Below, one piece after another: positions 1,160 to 62,462 of a DNA stretch of 64,000 nt (positions are counted from its first letter, which is position 1; each line of letters starts with the position of its first letter). The notes below the pieces were generated by a model, which was not told the DNA's origin, did not search any database, and saw only the letters and a list, made by a program, of their open reading frames with translations. The DNA comes from Candidatus Woesearchaeota archaeon (GTDB lineage Archaea > Nanobdellota > Nanobdellia > SCGC-AAA011-G17 > PNOQ01): positions 84 through 64,083 of the forward strand of contig CAZRTL010000006.1 of assembly GCA_964603065.1 (NCBI GenBank), written 5' to 3'. The position numbers were made by a program, and so were the translations under genes.

Positions 1160-2428
1160 ATGGGAAAGAGTGTGATATTTGTAGTTTTGCTAATAATTAG
1201 TATTAGTTTAGTTTCTGCTAAAGTTATTGATATCCCCAAAGTTAAACAGGGAAAATTTTTACCAGAAAATATTCAAGAGGATTCTCCAATTGGAATAAAA
1301 AGGTATGTTTATGGTGGTAACTCTTTAGTTGCTTCTCAAGATAGTGAAGGAGTTAAATATTATCATCAAGATAGACTTTGGAGTAATAGAGTAATTACTG
1401 ATTCTTCTGGAAATAAAGATAGTGAGTTTTTGTCTTTGCCTTTTGGACAAGTAGTGATTGAAGGCATAGATTATAGTTTTACTGGAAAAGAGTTAGATTC
1501 TTCTGGATTATATTACTTTGGAGCTAGATATTATGATTCTAATTTGGGAAGGTTTTCTTCTAGGGATCCTGTTCCGAATGAATTACCTTATGCTTATGTT
1601 GGAAATAATCCTATGAATTTTATTGATCCTGATGGAATGGATAGATATTCTATGTTGGCAGGAGATAAATCTATTGTTGGGCATTATCTTACTCCAGTTC
1701 TTCCTTTTAATTATATCAAAGATGTTACTGGATCGACAACTCTTGGTGCTTTAGGAGGGATTGCTTTTATGTTGGGTCATGAATGGGGGGAATATACCAA
1801 TCCTGCGATGTATAATTTTCCTGGCACTATTCAAGGGGCAGGCTATAGTTTTGGTGAATACCTGAATAGTCCTGATACGAGAGAGGATTTAAGATTGGGG
1901 ATAATTGGTTTAGCTGTAGAAAGTTTGAATCTTCCGGTTTCAATTGAAACAGAATCTTTATTTTTATCTGGGCAAGATAATCCTTTGGCTGCTGCCCCTT
2001 ATAATGAAAGAGTTTTTTTCGGTTTAGAATCTGGGAGTATTGAGAATGAGGGTATGTCCTTGAGATTTGGTTTGGTTGCTGGGCATAATGAGCCTGTCGC
2101 TGATGATGCTTTGCCCCTTTCTCATGTTTATACAAATAGGGGAGTAGGATTTGGATTTAGTAGCTTGGGAAGCCATGGCCAGATTGGAGATGCTGGAGAC
2201 TTTTTAGGGTTAGGGATAAGAATAAAGAAAACTCTTTTTTCGATTGATAGTATTGGAGTGAGCTTTCCTGCTTATGGCTTGTTTAGTATTAATCAACCAA
2301 GAGAAGGTAGTTCTTATGGCCAGCTATCTGGAGGGGCCGGCATAGAATTTAATGATTGGGGTAGATTCCCTATACGCATGGTTTCTAGTGGTGATTCGAT
2401 AGGATTGGGTATTGGCGGAAGTTTTTAG
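1160..2428 (+). CDS. Secreted RHS-repeat-associated core domain protein with a Gly-rich C-terminal domain of unknown function (toxin-like cassette)
   Basis: N-terminal signal peptide. RHS core signature YYHQDRLWSNRVITDSSGN...PFGQ...FGARYYDSNLGRFSSRDPV..PYAYVGNNPMNFIDPDG. The RHS core is shared with 5139..6236; the C-terminal domain is different. Confidence 0.75.
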   Translation: MGKSVIFVVLLIISISLVSAKVIDIPKVKQGKFLPENIQEDSPIGIKRYVYGGNSLVASQDSEGVKYYHQDRLWSNRVITDSSGNKDSEFLSLPFGQVVIEGIDYSFTGKELDSSGLYYFGARYYDSNLGRFSSRDPVPNELPYAYVGNNPMNFIDPDGMDRYSMLAGDKSIVGHYLTPVLPFNYIKDVTGSTTLGALGGIAFMLGHEWGEYTNPAMYNFPGTIQGAGYSFGEYLNSPDTREDLRLGIIGLAVESLNLPVSIETESLFLSGQDNPLAAAPYNERVFFGLESGSIENEGMSLRFGLVAGHNEPVADDALPLSHVYTNRGVGFGFSSLGSHGQIGDAGDFLGLGIRIKKTLFSIDSIGVSFPAYGLFSINQPREGSSYGQLSGGAGIEFNDWGRFPIRMVSSGDSIGLGIGGSF

Positions 2429-2432
2429 AAAT

Positions 2433-3266
2433 TTAAATTTTTACAGCAATTCTACCATCTTTTAGAATTCTTACTTTGCCCCCCGATTCTGAAACGGTTA
2501 TTGCTATTGCATTTGTTTCTTTTGTTATAGCCGCACAAGCTCTGTGTTTAGTTCCAAATCCTCCCGGTAAATCTATATCAGAAATATTGATATCTAAATA
2601 TGTTCCTGCGCTTATTATGTGCCCTTCTTCATCTATTATGAAAGCTCCATCCAGTTGAGCAAATTCTTTTACGGTTTCTTTTACAGAAAGATCTGTGATT
2701 TTTATTTTTTCATCTAATCTTCCGAATGGGTTTATTATTAGTTGTTTTAAATATCTGTTTAGCTCCGATATTTCACCAATAATAAAAGCTGTGCCTATTT
2801 TTCTTCCTTCTCTTCCTTCTTGAGAGATTTCTCTTGCTATATCTAAAACAGCTTCAATTATCTCAGGACTTATTTTTTCAGAAATGTTTTGTTTTCCCAT
2901 TTTAAAGAAAACTTCATCAACATCAAATATGAAAAGAACACCTTTATACCCAGTCCCCATACTCCCATCCTCTATACAAACAATTTTCTCTCCTTTTTTT
3001 ATATAATCTTTTGTTATAGACTCCATGAGAATTTCTTTTACAGGAACTATGGAACCAGTCTCTAATCTTTTTATTTTTGTTTTATACTCTATTTTTTTAT
3101 ATACTTTTGGCTGGACTTTTTTAAAAATTGTTACTTTTATATCTAATTTTTCTTCTTCTTCATATTCTTCTTTTTGTATTTTCTCTATAGAAACTATTCC
3201 ATCTGCATTGATTTCTCGGGCTATTTTAGTAGCTGCTGCTCCAATAGACTGCTCAATAAGGTTCAT
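2433..3266 (-). CDS. dacZ: Diadenylate cyclase (DAC domain, DacZ-like)
   Basis: DAC motifs DGAFIID and GTKHRACAAIT followed by VSESGG. Confidence 0.75.
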   Translation of the reverse strand: MNLIEQSIGAAATKIAREINADGIVSIEKIQKEEYEEEEKLDIKVTIFKKVQPKVYKKIEYKTKIKRLETGSIVPVKEILMESITKDYIKKGEKIVCIEDGSMGTGYKGVLFIFDVDEVFFKMGKQNISEKISPEIIEAVLDIAREISQEGREGRKIGTAFIIGEISELNRYLKQLIINPFGRLDEKIKITDLSVKETVKEFAQLDGAFIIDEEGHIISAGTYLDINISDIDLPGGFGTKHRACAAITKETNAIAITVSESGGKVRILKDGRIAVKI

Positions 3267-35883: not shown

Positions 35884-36231
35884 TTGTGCAGTTACAATGC
35901 GAAGGAGGTGTTTTATTTGAAAAAATTAATTTTTGTGTTATTTCTTGTTAGTATTTTATTAATTTCTGGTTGTCAAACACAAGAGGAGACCCAACAGAGT
36001 CCTAATAAAATAGACTATGAGCAGATTGGTGCAGATTGCTCTGCAATGATGGATCTTACAGCAAAATGCCCAGGAATTATAAATGCTGAGAGTGAAGAAG
36101 AAATTCAAACTGAGCTTGAGAAATGTGGTATACAACCTGATAAAGGATTCAGCTTATTTAGATTGCTTAATTGTGCTTGTTGCGTAAGTAGTGGGAATCC
36201 TGCTTGTTGTGTAAGTTGTATAAAAGGATAA
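35884..36231 (+). CDS. Small Cys-rich lipoprotein-like protein
   Basis: Signal peptide ending LISGC. Confidence 0.3.
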   Translation: MCSYNAKEVFYLKKLIFVLFLVSILLISGCQTQEETQQSPNKIDYEQIGADCSAMMDLTAKCPGIINAESEEEIQTELEKCGIQPDKGFSLFRLLNCACCVSSGNPACCVSCIKG

Positions 36232-51600: not shown

Positions 51601-52672
51601 AAATACGCAATCAAACATTAATTCATTTTTAGAAATTTATGGAAGTACTTTGGATAACATAGAAGAAGAAAGAAGTCAAGATATTCCCGGAGATGATTGT
51701 TTTGGTTATACTGAAGATGCTGCTGTTGATAGTTTAGTTTCTTCTGGTGTGGCCCAGTTAGATAATATAGTTGAATTAAGTGATTCCGAGGAAGATTCTC
51801 TTTTGTATACAGAAGTTGAGTTATTTCTTGGACAGAATGCTGCCATGTTGCGAATGTTGGGATGTGAAGAGGACGCTGGTTTAGTTGGGGCAGTGATAGA
51901 TTCTGCTGTGACCCGAACTGGAGTTGAGGTTGATTCTTGTAGTGTTTCTGAGGAAACGGTGGAGGAGGCAGATTGTTCTAGTTTTAATGATAATTTAGCA
52001 CAATGTGGAAATGAGAATTTTTGTTTTGTAAAAGAAAATGATAGAGATTGGTGGGATTTTTTTGGAGAAGATTATATTTGTGTTGATTGTTCTGAAATTG
52101 AGTCCTGTGAAGATATTCAAAATGAAGGTAAATGTGATGGAATGTGTGGAAATGTTAATGGTTGTAAGTGGGATTATGGTTTGTGTGTAGAACAAACTAT
52201 CGAAGAGGAAGAATGTTTGCTTACAAAAATTAATCCTTCAAATTTTGTTGGAGATGATCTCGTAGTGGATAAAGGTTTTGTTGAAAAAATTAATAGAATT
52301 AATGATTATGCTACTAACAATAATGTTAAGGTATTTATTACTGATTCATTTAGAGCTACAAACGATGTTAGTGGTGCAATCGTGACTCCTTCTGAAAGAT
52401 CCAATCATTTAGTGGGCCATGCAATAGATATGAATTTGATGTATGGGGCAAATTATGGAGATTATTGTAACTCTGGGTGTTTATCCCAAGATACACTTCC
52501 ACAAGATATTCAAGTGTTTATAGAAGATATTAGAAGTGATAGTGGTTTAAGATGGGGGGGAGACTTTAGTACCCCCGATGTTGTTCATATAGATGATGGT
52601 TTAAATTTAAGGAGCCCCGACCAATGGGAAGCACTGCTTAGAAAAATACAAGAGAATCCAGATTGTTATTAA
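45653..52672 (+). CDS. Giant (2339 aa) secreted protein with C-terminal peptidase M15 (LAS/D-Ala-D-Ala carboxypeptidase-like) domain
   Basis: Sec signal peptide. Uninterrupted 7-kb ORF. C-terminal motifs SNHLVGHAIDMN and GLRWGGDF...VVHIDDG. Cys-rich module just upstream of the peptidase. Confidence 0.7.
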   Translation: MKEKVLMAVFCIFLIVFSSVQVSAYSLNEEDDRDLGEVVLINVDKYEPATVSADYLRNKKFPVYVHLTGTTLESFLWGGSNPEELDTLFGGLKIDRIHIVRDSISRYVAGITERPPKEDGYFVDANGEVDLGYLKIDLRRIPKEEDLPDRIDLNFTARVYFDTESSFSVFGKQDLFLELGSGINNLEIAGDEDSNKKSRVKVWDGRAELEFLQLRGDRATFQLYDGSGRKLGGPFTLRTGQIQTLRLNDGPAFLDNQVRFKLKGIYGAGERAVINMYRHGSSNDVELVEDMNLYAGSDWVLEEIGRDKVQLRNLKTRQTMILNVGQGDFDTDICERIDPIQIDSDELFLRGVGFLEGDHFEDDTLLGRSSSFYCSAIDQYERALTYAIGEEASEIKYSIGTLYEKVGDMYNALEMYDTILPETDFYRTKNVQKKIDDLNFLIANEITNSKILEDDVRVYLKEVIDVEEEESYFMFRTITNGIKGQEFTRTIGMESQDLIVESVDGGKTYEWYARDIDADEITVIKVDEDGRTIGSPRKLDIGEHILDNTVVEITDITTPYSVIMTAIPGDGRSYGVSNFQVHIPIEKSMIQWTPEQIDNMIDKSHKAVEDIEKIMDKLGNFIKGMKVACFGIYGVLAIKNAFFRDNNVRKEVVDEKSRWCNDGIRTGELDYKKLDECLEAESSKIEQEITERKGLKNTNDNFFKNNKLMKQDASGINVADPSSASALANKLKTDSGINIKGEDIENLLNYDSYTGFTTAEAQRLSYLASHDPEAFEVEWRDYQESSLKAKTLHTSLGGVTDPVQIQTLATPIFTPGKTTTDFSSGPSGIETQVKAIDPSAQIFEARSIQSDGGEFYVSSKTGTEAVKVEIHRDANLNPVEFGDYYLYKGSGNRYFLHKGDVTQLYRQNYNSNSHKVLQINDDGKLWMFPFSSSLGKRDDPLYDKVDYANYVVVDYDDSGKIKSYNLMNVGADGEINYPGTGDDVPVPRAPYLLWPPAENRNAQYVALANQVDSEYKKFATRSLIPGKTVSFGGDLVYSVSESASRSLQQPTTQCEYYMSASDCKLLYNFCDPVMCPASRFDLGNRWNVDNVVQTGIIGSLVLGMPNSIALGGNNIVPPICLTGVHAGLDNLRSKFQGFEDCLQKAKVEGEDVGICNTIRSVYMCEIMWREGLSIFGSLGKLADVVSEKVFGIFGGDGWEYSRWQESWGELRDNVNFFTTEYSRSAFVSYQSRSLGEFGSEICKAAIYGKTPGAGDFIGELLEPDSPYQFTGWFDELEYSSVEEGRSIYRVYYHIYAGRDEDIEYVAYLKGPGLNNLYVTNPERGLRREYLRTGEYADRSYTITGDTGYNTMCIFINGNEQCGFGKVSSSYASQQLQDWMLEDELLRNDIETAEECMPDTPHLNPYLPGVVTPSLPGAGAISEQGVIRICSADDPDGTGTRWLQVGTCGENELGISLGNCYIDYENSANFNDLKKKDEVADEYINETVKKEIDEHIEEFNLELDKVDVKVNKIIEQVKDKGVKVKEIDELMTYPALYLDAKDQLDDSSVHIRTHKKVAEIFNALGNTQLKIAGVGPLPITATPLIRSLAELNLQFNIKAIGMFSTRNDINLNWMMSTLPSGVTLSPSNNEEEGFVGRWSNNVGTYNNRIATDENTFKDFDKGLEDIYHDFLNSYAVGTSDDGGYLHELNVRKRHFDNTIDRHSLTPMQLSQVRNYEEFRDLILTGEFEGSYDYDYTVGLLDKDKEIEIIFAIPTFDWDQKYKWDGSEWDDMKIGVFGDSNVGLDFLPGLVEIKDQLNKYHGRTERVVISVSDGISMIALTKEEFNALVFTIEGDPDAVGDSGVVNSALQDQVSPMVVNQVENAEVMIDLFLERAGNDADNLEELERLTVLAEQSEFVARENAYAGLISDDDSDEIVDSLRDISNKMDEAILIVEDVALKNRMEQVQENIMILENNPVLFVPQEGDLPGTESCLLPSTPERNPYTNTQSNINSFLEIYGSTLDNIEEERSQDIPGDDCFGYTEDAAVDSLVSSGVAQLDNIVELSDSEEDSLLYTEVELFLGQNAAMLRMLGCEEDAGLVGAVIDSAVTRTGVEVDSCSVSEETVEEADCSSFNDNLAQCGNENFCFVKENDRDWWDFFGEDYICVDCSEIESCEDIQNEGKCDGMCGNVNGCKWDYGLCVEQTIEEEECLLTKINPSNFVGDDLVVDKGFVEKINRINDYATNNNVKVFITDSFRATNDVSGAIVTPSERSNHLVGHAIDMNLMYGANYGDYCNSGCLSQDTLPQDIQVFIEDIRSDSGLRWGGDFSTPDVVHIDDGLNLRSPDQWEALLRKIQENPDCY

Positions 52673-53379
52673 TTCTTAAGAAAATAAAATGCAGGGAACA
52701 GGACTCGAACCTGCGTAGGCACTAAGCCATCAGGTTTCTTATATGGAAATATCCTAAGCCTGACCCGTTTGACCACTCCGGCATCCCTGCATATTTTTTC
52801 TAACTTTTTAATATTTTTTAAAGGTATCGTTTTGAGAAAATTATTTACTGATGATTTTTTTATTCGAATACCATAATATTCTTTTTGATATTTTTTATTT
52901 ATCCAAGAATCTATTGTATTTTCTATTTTTATTGAATTCAAATATTGATTTATTTCAGTAATGATTTGCTTACTTGCACTACAATATCCTATACTATTTC
53001 TCCTAATTCCTCCATCTGTGTCAAACAACCCTCCTAAGAAATATTTTGTTTGTTCTTTGGTTAAATTTTTTGGAATAATTATTTTGTCTGATTTTTTGCC
53101 TAATGGAATTTTAAATTCTTTATTGAAGAAAGTATATAATTTTTTGTTTCTTATTGAAATATAATAGGCTCTCTTTCCTTGTTTAATTGATGTTTTTGTA
53201 TTTACTTTTTCTTTTATTAATTTGAGAATTAATTCTAAATATTTTTTATTATTTGAATGAATAAATATTCCATAATCAGGAGAATTATCTTTATCTTTCC
53301 ATTTAACGCCCCCTTTTAGATGACCATCTCCAGCTATTACGCCTGCCAAATATATTAAATCATTATCAAGTTTGAACAT
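52669..53379 (-). CDS. LAGLIDADG homing endonuclease-like protein. The ORF reads through the whole co-oriented tRNA-Leu(TAG) gene.
   Basis: LAGVIAGDGHL and FLGGLFDTDGGI. The last 40 or so codons are translation of the tRNA sequence. Confidence 0.7.
   Translation of the reverse strand: MFKLDNDLIYLAGVIAGDGHLKGGVKWKDKDNSPDYGIFIHSNNKKYLELILKLIKEKVNTKTSIKQGKRAYYISIRNKKLYTFFNKEFKIPLGKKSDKIIIPKNLTKEQTKYFLGGLFDTDGGIRRNSIGYCSASKQIITEINQYLNSIKIENTIDSWINKKYQKEYYGIRIKKSSVNNFLKTIPLKNIKKLEKICRDAGVVKRVRLRIFPYKKPDGLVPTQVRVLFPAFYFLKN
52689..52789 (-). tRNA. tRNA-Leu(TAG) with 17-nt bulge-helix-bulge intron at 37/38
   Basis: Acceptor GCAGGGA/TCCCTGC, anticodon stem TCAGG/CCTGA, loop CTTAGG|intron ATATTTCCATATAAGAA|A. 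The bulge-helix-bulge geometry is canonical (CTTA/TAAG helix, 3-nt bulges). Confidence 0.75.
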
Positions 53380-56446: not shown

Positions 56447-56824
56447 ATGGTAGAGCAGCTATTAAATTTAATTGAAAGAGGAGAGCATTTAAATATTTTA
56501 AGGAGCCAAGGTAGAAAGGCAATACTTAGAGAAGAAATTGCTAAGAGGGTGGCTAGATTGAAAAACCAAAGTAGTATTTTGGAAGGCCGTTTGGAGTTAG
56601 TTTCTGCAGATATGAATCCTATTAATAGTTTCAGAGAGAGAATGTATACTGTAACATTTAAATCTGAAGGGAATAAAGAACATATATTCAATATTCCTTT
56701 GGTAGATTGGGAAGATTCCTATAGGAGTAAATTACTTAACGGTGCTGCCGATGTGAAAATTGTTTACAGGGGACAAGAAGGAAAACATTATTGGCCTCTG
56801 ATAGAAAGAATTGATTTTCTTTAA
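56447..56824 (+). CDS. hypothetical protein
   Basis: ORF only. Confidence 0.3.
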   Translation: MVEQLLNLIERGEHLNILRSQGRKAILREEIAKRVARLKNQSSILEGRLELVSADMNPINSFRERMYTVTFKSEGNKEHIFNIPLVDWEDSYRSKLLNGAADVKIVYRGQEGKHYWPLIERIDFL

Positions 56825-57822
56825 TTCCAATCTACTTCCACTTGGTCAGTTCTTTGATAGGGATATATTTGAGGATTAGTTTTTTTAAGTTTATTTCTTC
56901 CTTTATACATCAAATATCCAGTTAAAGCAATCATTGCTGCATTGTCTACTAAGTATGGTATTTCTGGAATGAAGCATTTGGCTCCTCTTTCTTTTGCCAT
57001 TATTTTTGACATTTCTTGAAGTCTAGAATTACATGCAACTCCTCCGCCTAGTGCGAGCTCTTTTTTATTACAGTGTGCCATTGCCCTTTCCGATACTTCT
57101 AATAGCATAGCAAAAGTGGTTTCCTGTAAAGAATAAGCTAACTCTTCTGTCTTGTATTTTTTTGAATCGTACAAATGTTTTAGTTTTGTTAACATTCCAG
57201 TAAATGAAATATCCATTCCTTTAACGGAGTAAGGCAATTCTATATAATTGTGAGATTTTTCAGCTAGTTTTGAGATTTTTGGTCCACCGGGAAAACCAAG
57301 CCCCATATATCTTGCAAATGAATCCAGAAAATTTCCAACTCCTTGATCCAGAGTTTCTCCAAATATTCTATACTTTCCTTCATCAAAAGCTATAATTTGA
57401 GTATTTGCTCCTGAAGTGTATAGAAGAACTGGATCTTTCGCCTTTGTTACTATTTTGGTAATTTCTAAGTGTGCTATACAATGATTTACTTCTATAAAAG
57501 GAAGTTTAAGTTCTTCAACTAATTCTTTTCCAACTCTTAGGCAAGGTCCTAATCCAGGTCCTGCAGAATATGCTATAAAATCGATATCCTCTAGTTTTAT
57601 TTTTGCTGTTTCTAATGCTTCTTTTAGTAATTTATCTTTATGTTTTTCGTGATGTTTGGCGGCCTTTATTGGAATGATTCCGCCTTTTTCTGTTGTGAAA
57701 GTTCTTTTTAGATTGCACAATACTTTAGGGCCTTTTGTTATTGCGATTCCGAAAGTATCTCAGCAGAATTAATCTAGAGCTGTACTTTCGATACCAAGGA
57801 TTATTGGATTTTCTTTTTCCAT
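56821..57822 (-). CDS. kae1: tRNA N6-adenosine threonylcarbamoyltransferase Kae1 (KEOPS), coding sequence interrupted by a predicted 18-nt bulge-helix-bulge intron (exons 57777..57822 and 56821..57758)
   Basis: Exon 1 (MEKENPIILGIESTA) sits at the end of the upstream ORF. Exon 2 (…TFGIAITKGPKVLCNLKRTFTTEKGGIIPIKAAKHH…GPGLGPCLRVG…VNHCIAHLEI) is the supplied 299-aa ORF. They are in the same frame, separated by TAA..TGA. The predicted splice gives a 327-aa Kae1. Confidence 0.7.
57759..57776 (-). other. Predicted bulge-helix-bulge intron inside kae1 mRNA (UAGAUUAAUUCUGCUGAG)
   Basis: Exon-exon helix GAAAGUA/UACUUUC. Central 4-bp helix CAGC/GCUG. 3-nt bulges UC|U (5' site) and AG|A (3' site). Intronic mini-hairpin AGA-UUAAU-UCU. 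Removal restores the frame and yields …ESTAHTFGIAI…. Confidence 0.6.
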
Positions 57823-59007
57823 CTTTGATTTTTGCATTCTTTTGTATATCCCGCCTTGCCTTATTATTATGTTATGTTCATCTAATATCCTTTTTATAAT
57901 TTTTGTTGAGGATAAATTTTGTTCTAAACAACTATTGACCTTAGTTCCTAACCATTTTGGCCAGTGATGCGGCAGTTTCTCTGCGTTGATTATTTTTTCC
58001 ATTAATTGATATCGATAAGACTGTACCATTGGATTAAACAATGGGAGAGAATATGCATCTTCTAATCTTATTTTTACTTGTTGCATAGTTTTTTTATGTA
58101 AATTTCCTATATTAGATTGTATGTTTAATGAGTCAAATATTTTTTGGATAAATTCTGCATTTGGTTTTGTGACTATCCCCGCCCTATATTGAGTTATATC
58201 TATATATCCATCACTATCTGCAATCCCCTGTAAGAAACTTATTTTGAATTGTTTTGGAGCTTTTAATATCCAATCTGATTTTATTTTATCATAGCTTGTA
58301 AGTTCAGTATTTTTTAGCCCTAAACAAACCTTGAATGCCCAATCGATTAACGGAGAGCATTGGGAATGCCATGCATAAAAATCATGTGGGTTTCTTTTTC
58401 CTTTTGGGCAGTTTTTTGTTCTGTTTATTTTAATTCCTAAGGATTTCAAACAATGAGATGCATACTTTCCGAAATTTAAGTTGGTTTTGAATTTGGTAGT
58501 CAATCTTAACTGGATTCTCCTTGTAACCTTATTTTTTCTTTTTATTCCATGTTTTGATGCGTCCCCAACCATTATCCCAAGGATGTACCCTAATTCTTTT
58601 TCAATATTTTTTGAATTTAGTTGGGACAAAACATTAGTTATATCAGAATATTTATTGATTTTCTCAGGAACATTAATCCATGGTCCAGTTTGTATTCCCC
58701 CTCTTGTTGAATTAATTGATAATATTTTTTTATTTGGTTTTAGTTGATTGTAGTAGTTCAGGTAGTGTGCAATACATGGGATAGATTCTTCTCGAAACCA
58801 TTTAGTTATTGTGAATTTGGAAACATTTATGATTTTTGAGATTTTATTGACCGGCATTTTTCTATTTCTTAATCTATACGCTTTTAAGAATAATTTTAAT
58901 GTTTCTTTTTCTTTATTTGAAAAACTTGTCCCCCAGAAAATATTTAAAAATGTTAAATCTTTTACTTTTTTATCGTTTGATAACTTTATTATCTCTTCTG
59001 TTTTCAT
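57823..59007 (-). CDS. LAGLIDADG homing endonuclease-like protein with N-terminal HTH, in frame with and not separated by a stop from kae1 exon 1
   Basis: LAGLIDADG motifs LGYILGIMVGDASK and FLQGIADSDGYIDI. HTH ISKIINVSKFTITKWF. Confidence 0.65.
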
Positions 59008-59016
59008 ATCTACTTA

Positions 59017-59460
59017 TTGAATTTTATCTTTATAAACTCTTTTTGTGTACTTGACAACATAGTTTTACATTCTTTAATTCCAAGAATTATTGGATTTTTC
59101 ATATATTTTTATTTTTTAATAAGACTTATAAATTGTTTTGTTTTCCCTATTTTTATGGAAACAAAAAGAAAAAATATATTATTTGAAAATATGAGGAAAG
59201 AACTTGAGTCTTCGGGTTTAGTCCAAGTTGTGGCCTCTCAAAGTTTTTTAAGAGGAGTTCATAATTGCAATGCCGAAGGAGTTATTTGTATAAATTATAA
59301 AAATCCTGAAACTACCCTTGGAGATGTTAGAAGTTTTTTAGATAGGGAAGGAGATTTAGAAAGTAAAGGGAATGGAGAGTTGGTTTATCAAGTAAATTAT
59401 GTAGAGAGACACTCTTCTGGATATGATAAAGTTGTAGTTAGAGAAATATTTCCCAAATAA
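59017..59460 (+). CDS. hypothetical protein
   Basis: ORF only. The real start may be the internal METKRK. Confidence 0.3.
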   Translation: MNFIFINSFCVLDNIVLHSLIPRIIGFFIYFYFLIRLINCFVFPIFMETKRKNILFENMRKELESSGLVQVVASQSFLRGVHNCNAEGVICINYKNPETTLGDVRSFLDREGDLESKGNGELVYQVNYVERHSSGYDKVVVREIFPK

Positions 59461-59727
59461 AAATCCTTAAAAATAATCTTTTACTCTTTCATTTTATGAG
59501 AAACGTTAATCTAGAGATAGGAAGGCCTTTATTTCATATACTTATGGATAGATTGATGAGTGTTGGAGATGTTGAAGTTAAATCGAGAAAAGAAGAGTAT
59601 TTTGTTGGAGACTTTTATGAAACTCGACGAGGAGTTATATTGATTAATTTTGATTTTGTTAATTTTAGCTTATATGCAATTATTCTCTAAGAGGAAGCCT
59701 CTAAACAAATTCAAGAAAGTTTAGAAA

Positions 59728-62346: not shown

Positions 62347-62462
62347 GAGCCCGTAGCTTAGCCTGGTTTATAGCACTGGTCTTATATGACGGTTGCTGAT
62401 TTAGGTCAGTAGCTTGCTAAGAACACCAGAGGTCGGGGGTTCAAATCCCCTCGGGCTCACCA
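62347..62462 (+). tRNA. tRNA-Ile(TAT) with 37-nt bulge-helix-bulge intron at 37/38 and encoded CCA
   Basis: Acceptor GAGCCCG/CGGGCTC, anticodon stem CTGGT/ACCAG, loop CTTATA|intron|C. The bulge-helix-bulge is canonical (CTTA/TAAG helix, bulges TA|T and AA|C, intronic helix GAC/GTC). T arm GGGGG-TTCAAAT-CCCCT. CCA lies at 62460..62462. Confidence 0.7.

Follow-up and report, generated by a model that had tools for sequence, protein, structure and literature searches.

Free-standing homing endonucleases can mobilize introns that lack an open reading frame (ORF) of their own, a process known from phages as collaborative homing, with mobE and I-TevIII of T4 reportedly being one case. In another case, from the cyanophage S-PM2, the free-standing endonuclease F-CphI targets the intron insertion site in psbA, and the ORF-less group I intron blocks self-cleavage (PMC6083498). 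In Archaea, bulge-helix-bulge (BHB) introns of rRNA genes carry LAGLIDADG endonuclease genes such as I-DmoI, and the cbf5 pre-mRNA of Crenarchaeota contains a BHB intron of 16-44 bp, which the authors regarded as too short to encode an endonuclease (PMC2738675). Here, we describe the 5′ region of kae1 in a 64,000-nt stretch of a Candidatus Woesearchaeota contig (hereafter the window, to which all coordinates refer), in which a LAGLIDADG endonuclease gene directly precedes a kae1 gene that is interrupted by an 18-nt BHB mini-intron; the entire kae1/endonuclease region lies on the minus strand.

Read along this strand, the locus consists of the resident promoter and a decaying kae1 relic, a TATA box and the endonuclease gene, a substitute kae1 start and exon 1, a BHB intron at ESTA|HTFG, and the resident exon 2. 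From comparisons with related loci, we consider it probable that a mobile cassette has invaded the 5′ end of kae1 and that it represents an archaeal BHB-intron counterpart of collaborative homing with cleavage as a predicted step. Our confidence is high for the anatomy and for the linkage of endonuclease gene and intron, and moderate for the proposed mechanism of cleavage and protection. The element is best described as a combination of known kinds (a homing endonuclease, a BHB intron and collaborative homing), with the substitute 5′ exon as the unusual addition.

As in the phage systems, the endonuclease gene lies outside the intron and adjoins the intron-containing gene, and the intron is ORF-less. 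In the phages, the intron interrupts the target and the enzyme mobilizes the intron; at kae1, the co-occurrence of the two and the recombination tracts at their junction suggest the same logic. The kae1 cassette differs in residing in an archaeal chromosome, in having a protein-spliced BHB intron of 13-28 nt rather than a self-splicing group I ribozyme, and in its enzyme, which belongs to the LAGLIDADG type and not to the Endo VII-like or HNH enzymes of the phages. In addition, it brings along a start codon and exon 1 that take the place of the displaced resident 5′ end, and its cleavage is predicted. With the archaeal rRNA introns (I-DmoI, I-Tsp061I) it shares the enzyme fold, the intron class, the presumed splicing machinery and a conserved target in an essential gene, whereas the ORF of those systems lies inside a long intron of an rRNA gene and that of the kae1 cassette lies upstream of an exon of a protein-coding gene, the intron being too short to encode it. 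The kae1-linked endonuclease is also about twice the size of I-DmoI and has extra N- and C-terminal helical domains. Like cbf5, kae1 is a protein-coding gene with a short BHB intron that is expected to be removed by the tRNA-splicing endonuclease, but the cbf5 intron has no associated endonuclease and occurs in Crenarchaeota, whereas the kae1 intron is always accompanied by an adjacent endonuclease gene and occurs at loci labelled as several DPANN phyla and at one locus labelled Baldrarchaeota. Literature searches returned cbf5 as the only archaeal protein-coding gene with a BHB intron, which would make kae1 the second. Within the searchable library, full-text searches found no description of kae1 with a BHB intron and a homing endonuclease in DPANN archaea or Woesearchaeota, nor of an element that enters a leaderless gene at its very 5′ end and brings its own start codon and exon 1.

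The endonuclease ORF (59007..57769; 412 codons plus TAA) runs in frame into the 5′ end of kae1, and its first stop codon is the TAA (57771..57769) inside the intron, as the initial annotation of the locus had stated. Its first 395 codons (57823..59007) constitute the endonuclease gene proper, with a putative N-terminal helix-turn-helix (HTH), a double-LAGLIDADG core and a C-terminal helical bundle; they are followed by an in-frame 17-codon tail (MEKENPIILGIESTALD*, 57769..57822) made up of kae1 exon 1 and the first intron bases, and the C-terminal end reads ...IYKRMQKSKMEKENPIILGIESTALD (in its longer form ...GGIYKRMQKSKMEKENPIILGIESTALD). Exon 1 of kae1 (57777..57822; 46 nt) starts with the ATG at 57822 and comprises MEKENPIILGIESTA and the first base of the His codon, while exon 2 (56821..57758) begins with ...AT ACT TTC GGA... 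and encodes HTFGIAIT... to the stop. The remainder of Kae1 is visible as an open frame at 57720..56821, in the same frame as the endonuclease ORF, and matches Pfam TsaD at 1e-75. Unspliced, the frame across the junction reads IESTA-LD*FC*-DTFGIAIT; the spliced Kae1 has 327 aa. A TATA box (TTTATAAA, 59029..59036) is centred ~25 nt upstream of the endonuclease ATG, a position that fits a leaderless or near-leaderless transcript, and a similar box is found at the same distance in L001-L005, L008, L011, L013, L015 and L016.

These related loci stem from a scan of species-representative genomes with an endonuclease alignment, which yielded 27 loci (L001-L027), and a second set was obtained by searching metagenome contigs with a protein alignment of Kae1 exon 2, which yielded 80 loci (54-74% identity to the window Kae1) sampled independently of the endonuclease. 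Counting all loci in which the kae1 5′ end is present, kae1 is interrupted in 22/22 loci with the endonuclease gene and contiguous in 74/74 loci without it, figures that overstate the number of independent events since the carriers lack phylogenetic independence; eight of these 22, flagged as unclear by the script, were confirmed from the printed sequences and a BHB pattern search. Neither an intron without the endonuclease nor an endonuclease without the intron was observed in this comparison, which the initial annotation had proposed, and the linkage of the endonuclease with kae1 and the intron is far beyond chance. Among the 20 closest loci (L001-L020), 19 have kae1 directly downstream in the same orientation, and the contig of L018 ends before that point; the labels of these 19 are Woese-, Nano-, Pace-, Iain- and Aenigmatarchaeota, with one Baldrarchaeota and one Methanosarcinales. 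In the endonuclease-independent metagenome sample, only two of the 80 kae1 loci (L029 and L058; 2/76 informative loci) have the endonuclease upstream, and only these two are interrupted. Both the joint presence and absence of endonuclease and intron and the ORF-less state of the adjacent intron are features of collaborative homing. More distant endonuclease homologues (L021-L027; 25-38% identity), from bins assigned to Nitrososphaerales, Nitrosopumilales, Hadesarchaea, Bathyarchaeia, Gagatemarchaeum and others, have no kae1 nearby (0/7), and the link to kae1 is therefore limited to the closer endonuclease subfamily.

In the minimum-free-energy fold of 57830..57700, the kae1 junction forms a full hBHBh′ motif (57751..57789). 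The outer helix GAAAGUA/UACUUUC (CGAAAGUA/UACUUUCG) pairs exon 1 with exon 2, the central helix CAGC/GCUG (4 bp) is accompanied by the opposite-strand 3-nt bulges UCU and AGA, and the inner helix AGA/UCU closes the loop UUAAU. Cuts after the second base of each bulge would release the 18-nt intron UAGAUUAAUUCUGCUGAG (57759..57776) and join GCU C|AU ACU (Ala-His-Thr), giving the predicted spliced junction ...GAAAGUACAGCUC|AUACUUUCGG... and the protein sequence LGIESTA-H-TFGIAIT. All 22 carriers fit one pattern (outer helix of 7 bp, central 4, bulge 3, variable inner segment, central 4, bulge 3, outer 7), and in each of them the spliced sequence would read A-H-T, matching the GIESTAHTFG of the 74 uninterrupted genes. 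The introns are 13-28 nt long, and since 15 of the 22 lengths are not multiples of three, exon 2 would be out of frame in these loci unless the intron is removed. Across 19 distinct sequences, aligned after removal of the variable inner intron segment by hand, standard pairs account for 98.1% of cells. The central pair 9-17 is found in three Watson-Crick versions, U-A (9), C-G (7) and A-U (3), and is never unpaired, because the synonymous third base of the Thr codon covaries with an intron base; the outer-helix pair 3-26 occurs as A-U, G-U and G-C. None of 500 shuffles reached the covariation score, and in slid controls, with the 3′ partners shifted by 1-3 columns, pairing fell to 29-53%. By these comparative criteria the 18-nt interruption is a canonical archaeal BHB intron, its splicing being predicted. 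The organism must have the splicing enzymes, as two tRNA genes of the window (52790..52690 and 62347..62459) carry inserts.

The literal DNA sequence would also allow kae1 to be read as a pseudogene with an unrelated LAGLIDADG gene as its upstream neighbour, given the in-frame TAA and TGA 15 codons into the gene and the truncated 299-aa TsaD reported by gene callers. We give this hardly any credence, since exon 2 is under strong constraint in the three closest loci (ratio of nonsynonymous to synonymous substitution rates, dN/dS, 0.05-0.07), the covarying canonical BHB sits at one fixed site in 22 loci and restores both the frame and the conserved His, and the linkage with the endonuclease is absolute in the sample. 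The public gene calls for L108 (2501..4684) illustrate how such a locus is annotated: a 411-aa protein with a faint LAGLIDADG match is followed by a 299-aa TsaD without its N-terminus. Gene callers split carrier loci in this way into a 411-412-aa "hypothetical protein" and a truncated 299-aa TsaD/Kae1, and a kae1 that is mis-split can distort annotation, completeness or metabolic inference for DPANN genomes.

The frame relation between the two genes varies among the carriers. The endonuclease ORF is in frame with kae1 in 7/21 distinct loci and in about half of 37 full-length protein homologues, while in 14/21 distinct loci it stops before, or is out of frame with, the kae1 ATG, for example with an ATGA overlap in L008 and +1 overlaps in L004, L005 and L058. 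M-x(3-9)-LGIESTA plus 1-3 residues forms the C-terminus of roughly half of the homologous proteins, at identities as low as ~42%. In-frame read-through, one of three possible frame relations, is thus no more frequent than chance, and the in-frame fusion is incidental. The distance from the end of the endonuclease gene to the intron site is 0-100 nt in all carriers, the substitute kae1 start and exon 1 being embedded in, or overlapping, the 3′ end of this gene, and an own kae1 start (ATG or TTG) is retained 5-10 codons before LGIESTA. It is very improbable that the 395-aa LAGLIDADG protein is a true N-terminal domain of Kae1, joined to it by splicing into a protein of ~722 aa. The ORFs are in frame in the window and six other distinct loci, in which the spliced mRNA would encode such a fusion, but the 14 loci with other frame relations and the constant retention of the kae1 start speak against it, as do the disorder predicted for the junction residues and the only 2-4 residues that precede LGIE in the 74/74 endonuclease-free relatives. 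The suggestion of an N-terminally extended Kae1, which had been offered as one option for this locus, is not upheld.

Uninterrupted kae1 genes start 2-4 codons before LGIE and have a TATA box ~25-30 nt upstream of the ATG, a geometry typical of a leaderless message. The consensus around the target site in 75 uninterrupted loci is GGaATnGAAtcnACnGCnCAtACnTTtGG, and the intron-less kae1 of L028 and L030 reads GGTTTAGAATCAACAGCACATACATTTGG around the intron site. At its 5′ end (~2966..2998), the uninterrupted kae1 of L028 reads ATA ATA AGC CTA GGT where L030 has ATG ATA AGC TTA GGT; no canonical start codon is evident in L028 at the expected leaderless position.

The protein encoded upstream of kae1 looks like an intact LAGLIDADG endonuclease whose cleavage activity is predicted from its structural model and motifs. 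Pfam LAGLIDADG_3 matches the ORF (3e-7), whereas a search of NCBIfam gave no match. The two motifs LGIMVGDASK (D149) and FLQGIADSDGY (D266) each contribute a catalytic acidic residue, as in monomeric LAGLIDADG homing endonucleases, and neither D149 nor D266 varies among 29 aligned homologues (36-81% identity). In total, 40 homologues were detectable (35-99% identity), those with named labels being assigned to Woesearchaeota, Nanoarchaeota or Aenigmatarchaeota; a scan of IMG/VR with the endonuclease alignment found no viral relative. An AlphaFold (AF2) model (predicted local distance difference test, pLDDT, 90; predicted template modelling score, pTM, 0.87) has the pseudo-dimeric alpha-beta-beta-alpha-beta-beta-alpha fold, extra HTH-like domains at both ends and a disordered Kae1-derived tail (residues 402-412, pLDDT < 50). 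Foldseek recovered the same fold, matching the core to I-DmoI (probability 1.00; target TM score 0.66-0.72, ~0.70), I-Tsp061I, PI-SceI, the bI3 maturase and WhiA. Comparison with the PDB by sequence alone was marginal (I-DmoI, E = 0.08; XRE HTH, E = 0.14), and because these sequence-only links to solved structures are weak, the family was settled by the fold search. Of the earlier description as an HTH plus double-LAGLIDADG protein, the second part is borne out by Pfam, the invariant Asp residues and Foldseek, while an XRE-type HTH at about residues 39-84 is weakly suggested by PF01381 matches on two homologues and the marginal XRE match.

Among the window, L001, L002 and L058, the dN/dS of the endonuclease is 0.08-0.15 (0.08-0.12 for the three closest) and that of kae1 exon 2 is 0.05-0.14 (0.05-0.07), approximate values given that dS exceeds 1; these ratios indicate that the endonuclease protein is clearly maintained by purifying selection. 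Two loci have endonuclease homologues without the N-terminal HTH domain (L017, 4001..4951; L019, 4001..4948), in which the match begins at about query residue 92 and the kae1 intron is kept; the open frame of L019 has no ATG. They may be degenerating endonuclease genes, which would fit the decay phase of a homing-endonuclease life cycle.

Several footprints of mobility are found at the carrier loci. In a nearest-neighbour analysis of Kae1 proteins, carriers are scattered among non-carriers. The Kae1 of L003 is 95% identical to that of L028 and 91% identical to that of L030, and both L028 and L030 are without endonuclease and intron. L003 is identical over a shared 5.6 kb to L029, a locus from the same metagenome as L028 (Ga0180009), and the DNA of L029 is homologous to that of L028 up to and through the TATA box of the native kae1. 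Beyond it, L028 has 49 nt and L029 has 1646 nt in their place; homology resumes at the intron site, with 86% identity through exon 2. The native promoter is thereby kept to the left of the insertion. Exon 1 of L029 reads MENRITCLGIESTA with GAAAGTAC, unlike the native MISLGLESTAH of L028 and L030, and resembles exon 1 of other carriers, from which we infer that it came with the endonuclease gene.

The displaced 5′ end of the resident gene can be recognized in the window, where a kae1-like start at 59102..59076 had been missed by the initial annotation. It opens a relic ORF of 30 codons (59010..59102; ATG AAA AAT CCA ATA ATT CTT GGA ATT..., MKNPIILGI) that ends with a TAG 2 nt before the endonuclease ATG, and a native-type kae1 TATA box (ATTTATAAGT, 59124..59133), which belongs to the displaced promoter, lies ~26 nt upstream of the relic ATG. 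Positions 59098..59076 are a direct repeat of 57812..57790 with 20/23 identical nucleotides, the three differences all being synonymous third positions, and none of 200 shuffles reached the score of this repeat. At the peptide level, a scan gave four sense matches versus one poor antisense match: MKNPIILGI at -95 from the endonuclease ATG in the window, MTIILGIESTCH at -99 in L005, the doubtful MICLSCEAT at -97 in L006 and MNCLGIES at -181 in L008. The relics of L005 and L008 have the short native-type N-terminus, and the L008 relic uses TTG and TCA for Leu and Ser where the functional copy has CTC and AGT. A stretch resembling exon 2 that might prolong the L005 relic (HFSGTIIK versus HTFGIGIVK) was not significant.

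Recombination is also recorded at the junction itself. All real differences between the window and the L108 strain, which comes from JGI 3300009008 and is otherwise the same over the rest of 6.2 kb, are confined to a 52-nt patch (57808..57859; 12 substitutions and one 3-nt indel) comprising the endonuclease gene end and the kae1 start, in which the window has an L001-type and L108 an L020-type sequence. Over a 178-nt tract (57740..57917), which runs from the 3′ end of the endonuclease gene through exon 1 and the intron to the first 19 nt of exon 2, the window is identical to L001, a locus otherwise 79.5% identical to it; the chance of such a run is ~0.795^178, on the order of 1e-18 if sites are taken as independent. 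L109 combines a window-type endonuclease gene with an exon 2 that is 100% L001-type, switching at 57740/57739, and this breakpoint is the right end of the L001-identical tract. These breakpoints and stretches of identity are located ~100 nt or less from the intron site, which is consistent with a target there. The distribution is thus sporadic, with horizontal spread at one fixed target site, and the comparisons point to the horizontal movement of one cassette consisting of promoter, endonuclease gene, substitute exon 1 and intron. A free-standing endonuclease linked with the intron as one mobile unit, as suggested initially, is hence favoured by the co-occurrence counts (22/22 versus 0/74), the patchiness and the junction mosaics.

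The kae1-start repeats on both sides of the endonuclease gene could alternatively mean that this gene sits inside one large spliced intron, with 59102..59076 as exon 1, or is an intein, and LAGLIDADG genes such as I-DmoI are indeed found inside BHB introns of archaeal rRNA genes (PMC2738675). We regard this as extremely improbable. Beyond GGAATT the relic ORF no longer follows the kae1 sequence, and it is closed by a TAG. The non-coding sequence that separates the relic repeat from the endonuclease ATG is only ~67 nt long, and L001 has lost the relic while its gene is otherwise intact. A large BHB intron using the relic as exon 1 was rejected because, judged by eye, the central helix between the window relic and the 3′ splice half (CACA/GCUG) forms only 2/4 pairs, L005 being similar. 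A group I or II intron carrying the endonuclease gene was likewise discarded: a scan of the whole window with Rfam at gathering thresholds found no such intron, its hits being the signal recognition particle (SRP) RNA, 5S rRNA and tRNAs, and there is no non-coding room for a ribozyme. An intein, which had already been dismissed on the grounds that the ORF precedes the Kae1 Met, is excluded by the TAG before the endonuclease ATG, the TAA at its end and the lack of a Pfam Hint/intein domain and of Cys/Ser/Thr splice junctions.

A more serious alternative is domestication, in which the LAGLIDADG protein would serve the host as a WhiA-like regulator of kae1 or a maturase-like splicing factor, selected at the host level and inherited mostly vertically. 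The low dN/dS of 0.08-0.12, close to that of kae1, would fit such a role, as would the gene order kept across several phyla and the roughly parallel identities of endonuclease and Kae1. The bacterial transcription factor WhiA, with its C-terminal HTH, and the bI3 maturase are built on the same double-LAGLIDADG scaffold with HTH-type domains; the fold matches both, extra HTH-like domains are present at both ends, and a maturase role would likewise account for the constant association of gene and intron. WhiA and the bI3 maturase are not known to retain the catalytic acidic residues, and WhiA is near-universal and vertically inherited in its clade, whereas in the kae1-linked family both catalytic Asp residues are invariant and the gene is rare (2/76 informative kae1 loci) and patchy. 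Further, a kae1 whose product is 95% identical (L028) does without both protein and intron, carriers have a foreign exon 1 and displaced native 5′ ends, and endonuclease type and exon 2 type reassort (L109). A canonical BHB is cut by the host splicing endonuclease, for which no maturase is expected. Domestication is thus unlikely, although it deserves more weight than the other alternatives.

For the mobile cassette, we propose the following mechanism. The endonuclease would cut kae1 alleles without the intron at, or next to, the site where the intron inserts, in a stretch that is strongly conserved owing to the GIESTAHTFG that it encodes. Repair of the break from the carrier allele would copy the endonuclease gene, exon 1 and the intron together, with exon 2 as the right homology arm and the relic or the resident 5′ end possibly as the left arm. 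The intron would split the recognition site and in this way protect the carrier, while the host tRNA-splicing endonuclease and ligase would remove it from the mRNA, so that Kae1 could still be made. Kae1 would be translated from its own ATG (57822) through coupling, reinitiation or an internal promoter; on unspliced RNA the TAA in the intron would end the endonuclease ORF, and spliced RNA could give a fusion, which is not required elsewhere. The position of the endonuclease gene may be related to the leaderless nature of the native gene, which starts ~30 nt before the target, so that an intron-borne endonuclease would leave, at the beginning of the leaderless message, a 5′ exon of only ~30 nt. 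With the endonuclease gene placed first and followed by a start codon and exon 1 of the cassette, this problem would not arise.

Several observations weigh against the mobile cassette or at least against its proposed mode of spread. The target of the endonuclease is suggested solely by the linkage and by the positions of the recombination tracts, and WhiA, a regulator that does not cut, has a similar combination of LAGLIDADG scaffold and HTH and is among the matches of the structural model. Strong purifying selection and the rough co-divergence of endonuclease and Kae1 would equally fit a gene that has long been inherited vertically and has some function for the host. The patches join alleles that all bear the intron and are presumably immune, and therefore attest to recombination at the junction rather than to cleavage. 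Shared ancestry of the carriers means fewer independent events than the counts of 22/22 and 0/74 imply. A DNA-level search upstream of all carrier loci found a significant relic in the window alone, the other relics being short peptide matches. The start of Kae1 inside the endonuclease mRNA also counts against the proposal, as no consistent internal promoter or Shine-Dalgarno signal for kae1 was found within the endonuclease 3′ end, where some loci have A-rich TATA-like stretches and an occasional GGAGG.

The likely consequence of the cassette is that an essential gene is kept working by the element that interrupts it, through the supply of a start codon and first exon. The tie between an ORF-less mini-intron and a neighbouring endonuclease gene provides a testable route by which tiny introns may spread, and the family offers new LAGLIDADG enzymes, presumably highly specific, with a predictable target.

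That this route may not be confined to kae1 is suggested by a second LAGLIDADG gene of the window, a double-LAGLIDADG ORF of 236 codons (53379..52669, minus strand; Pfam LAGLIDADG_3, 9e-15). Its reading frame continues at the 3′ end into the first part of a tRNA-Leu(UAG) gene that contains an intron (52790..52690, minus strand; typed by eye). This tRNA gene has, also by eye, a canonical BHB at position 37/38 (52763..52730) with a 17-nt intron (UCAGG-CUUA-GGA-UAUUUCCAUA-UAAG-AAA-CCUGA). The arrangement has the same layout as the endonuclease followed by kae1. Twenty homologues of this second endonuclease (33-100% identity) were found, most of which end in a translated tRNA 5′ half, such as ...AGVVKR... 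or ...GCRSGQTG, and in the three contexts that we inspected (L110-L112) the endonuclease abuts an intron-containing tRNA-Leu-like gene. The latter (L110, ~1795..1925; L111, ~1810..1935; L112, ~1840..1965) have inserts before the anticodon loop, or two inserts. They were recognized by eye and missed by Rfam at the gathering threshold, probably because their introns are non-canonical or multiple; ARAGORN mis-typed two of them as Pro and Lys and did not find the third. We tentatively entertain the possibility that free-standing LAGLIDADG genes with a substitute 5′ gene segment are a general vehicle for ORF-less BHB mini-introns in both protein and tRNA genes. If true, this would provide a DNA-level mobility mechanism for archaeal mini-introns and could explain some of the disrupted or multi-intron tRNA genes of DPANN archaea.

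The other insert-containing tRNA gene of the window (62347..62459, plus strand) is spanned over 113 nt by the Rfam tRNA model and missed by ARAGORN; it has no adjacent LAGLIDADG gene, its upstream neighbour being an arginase-family gene on the other strand. A weak tblastn match at 36007..36147 falls on ORFs without a LAGLIDADG motif. Among the distant homologues, L023 and L025 have a convergent EF-1alpha gene downstream of the endonuclease homologue. With regard to the labels outside DPANN, L009 is a 612-kb contig labelled Baldrarchaeota, the length of which argues for a real non-DPANN host, while L008, labelled Methanosarcinales, is an AT-rich contig of 8 kb and may be mis-binned. Finally, a small ORF of ~100 codons (~1380..1700, corresponding to ~3640..3960 in L003) with a signal-peptide-like start (MMNLKGIKKGLVTILLTCFA...) is encoded on the opposite strand within the 1646-nt insertion of L029, where it separates the former kae1 promoter from that of the endonuclease gene, and at the equivalent place in the window there are two small unannotated plus-strand ORFs, at 59155..59460 and 59496..59690.

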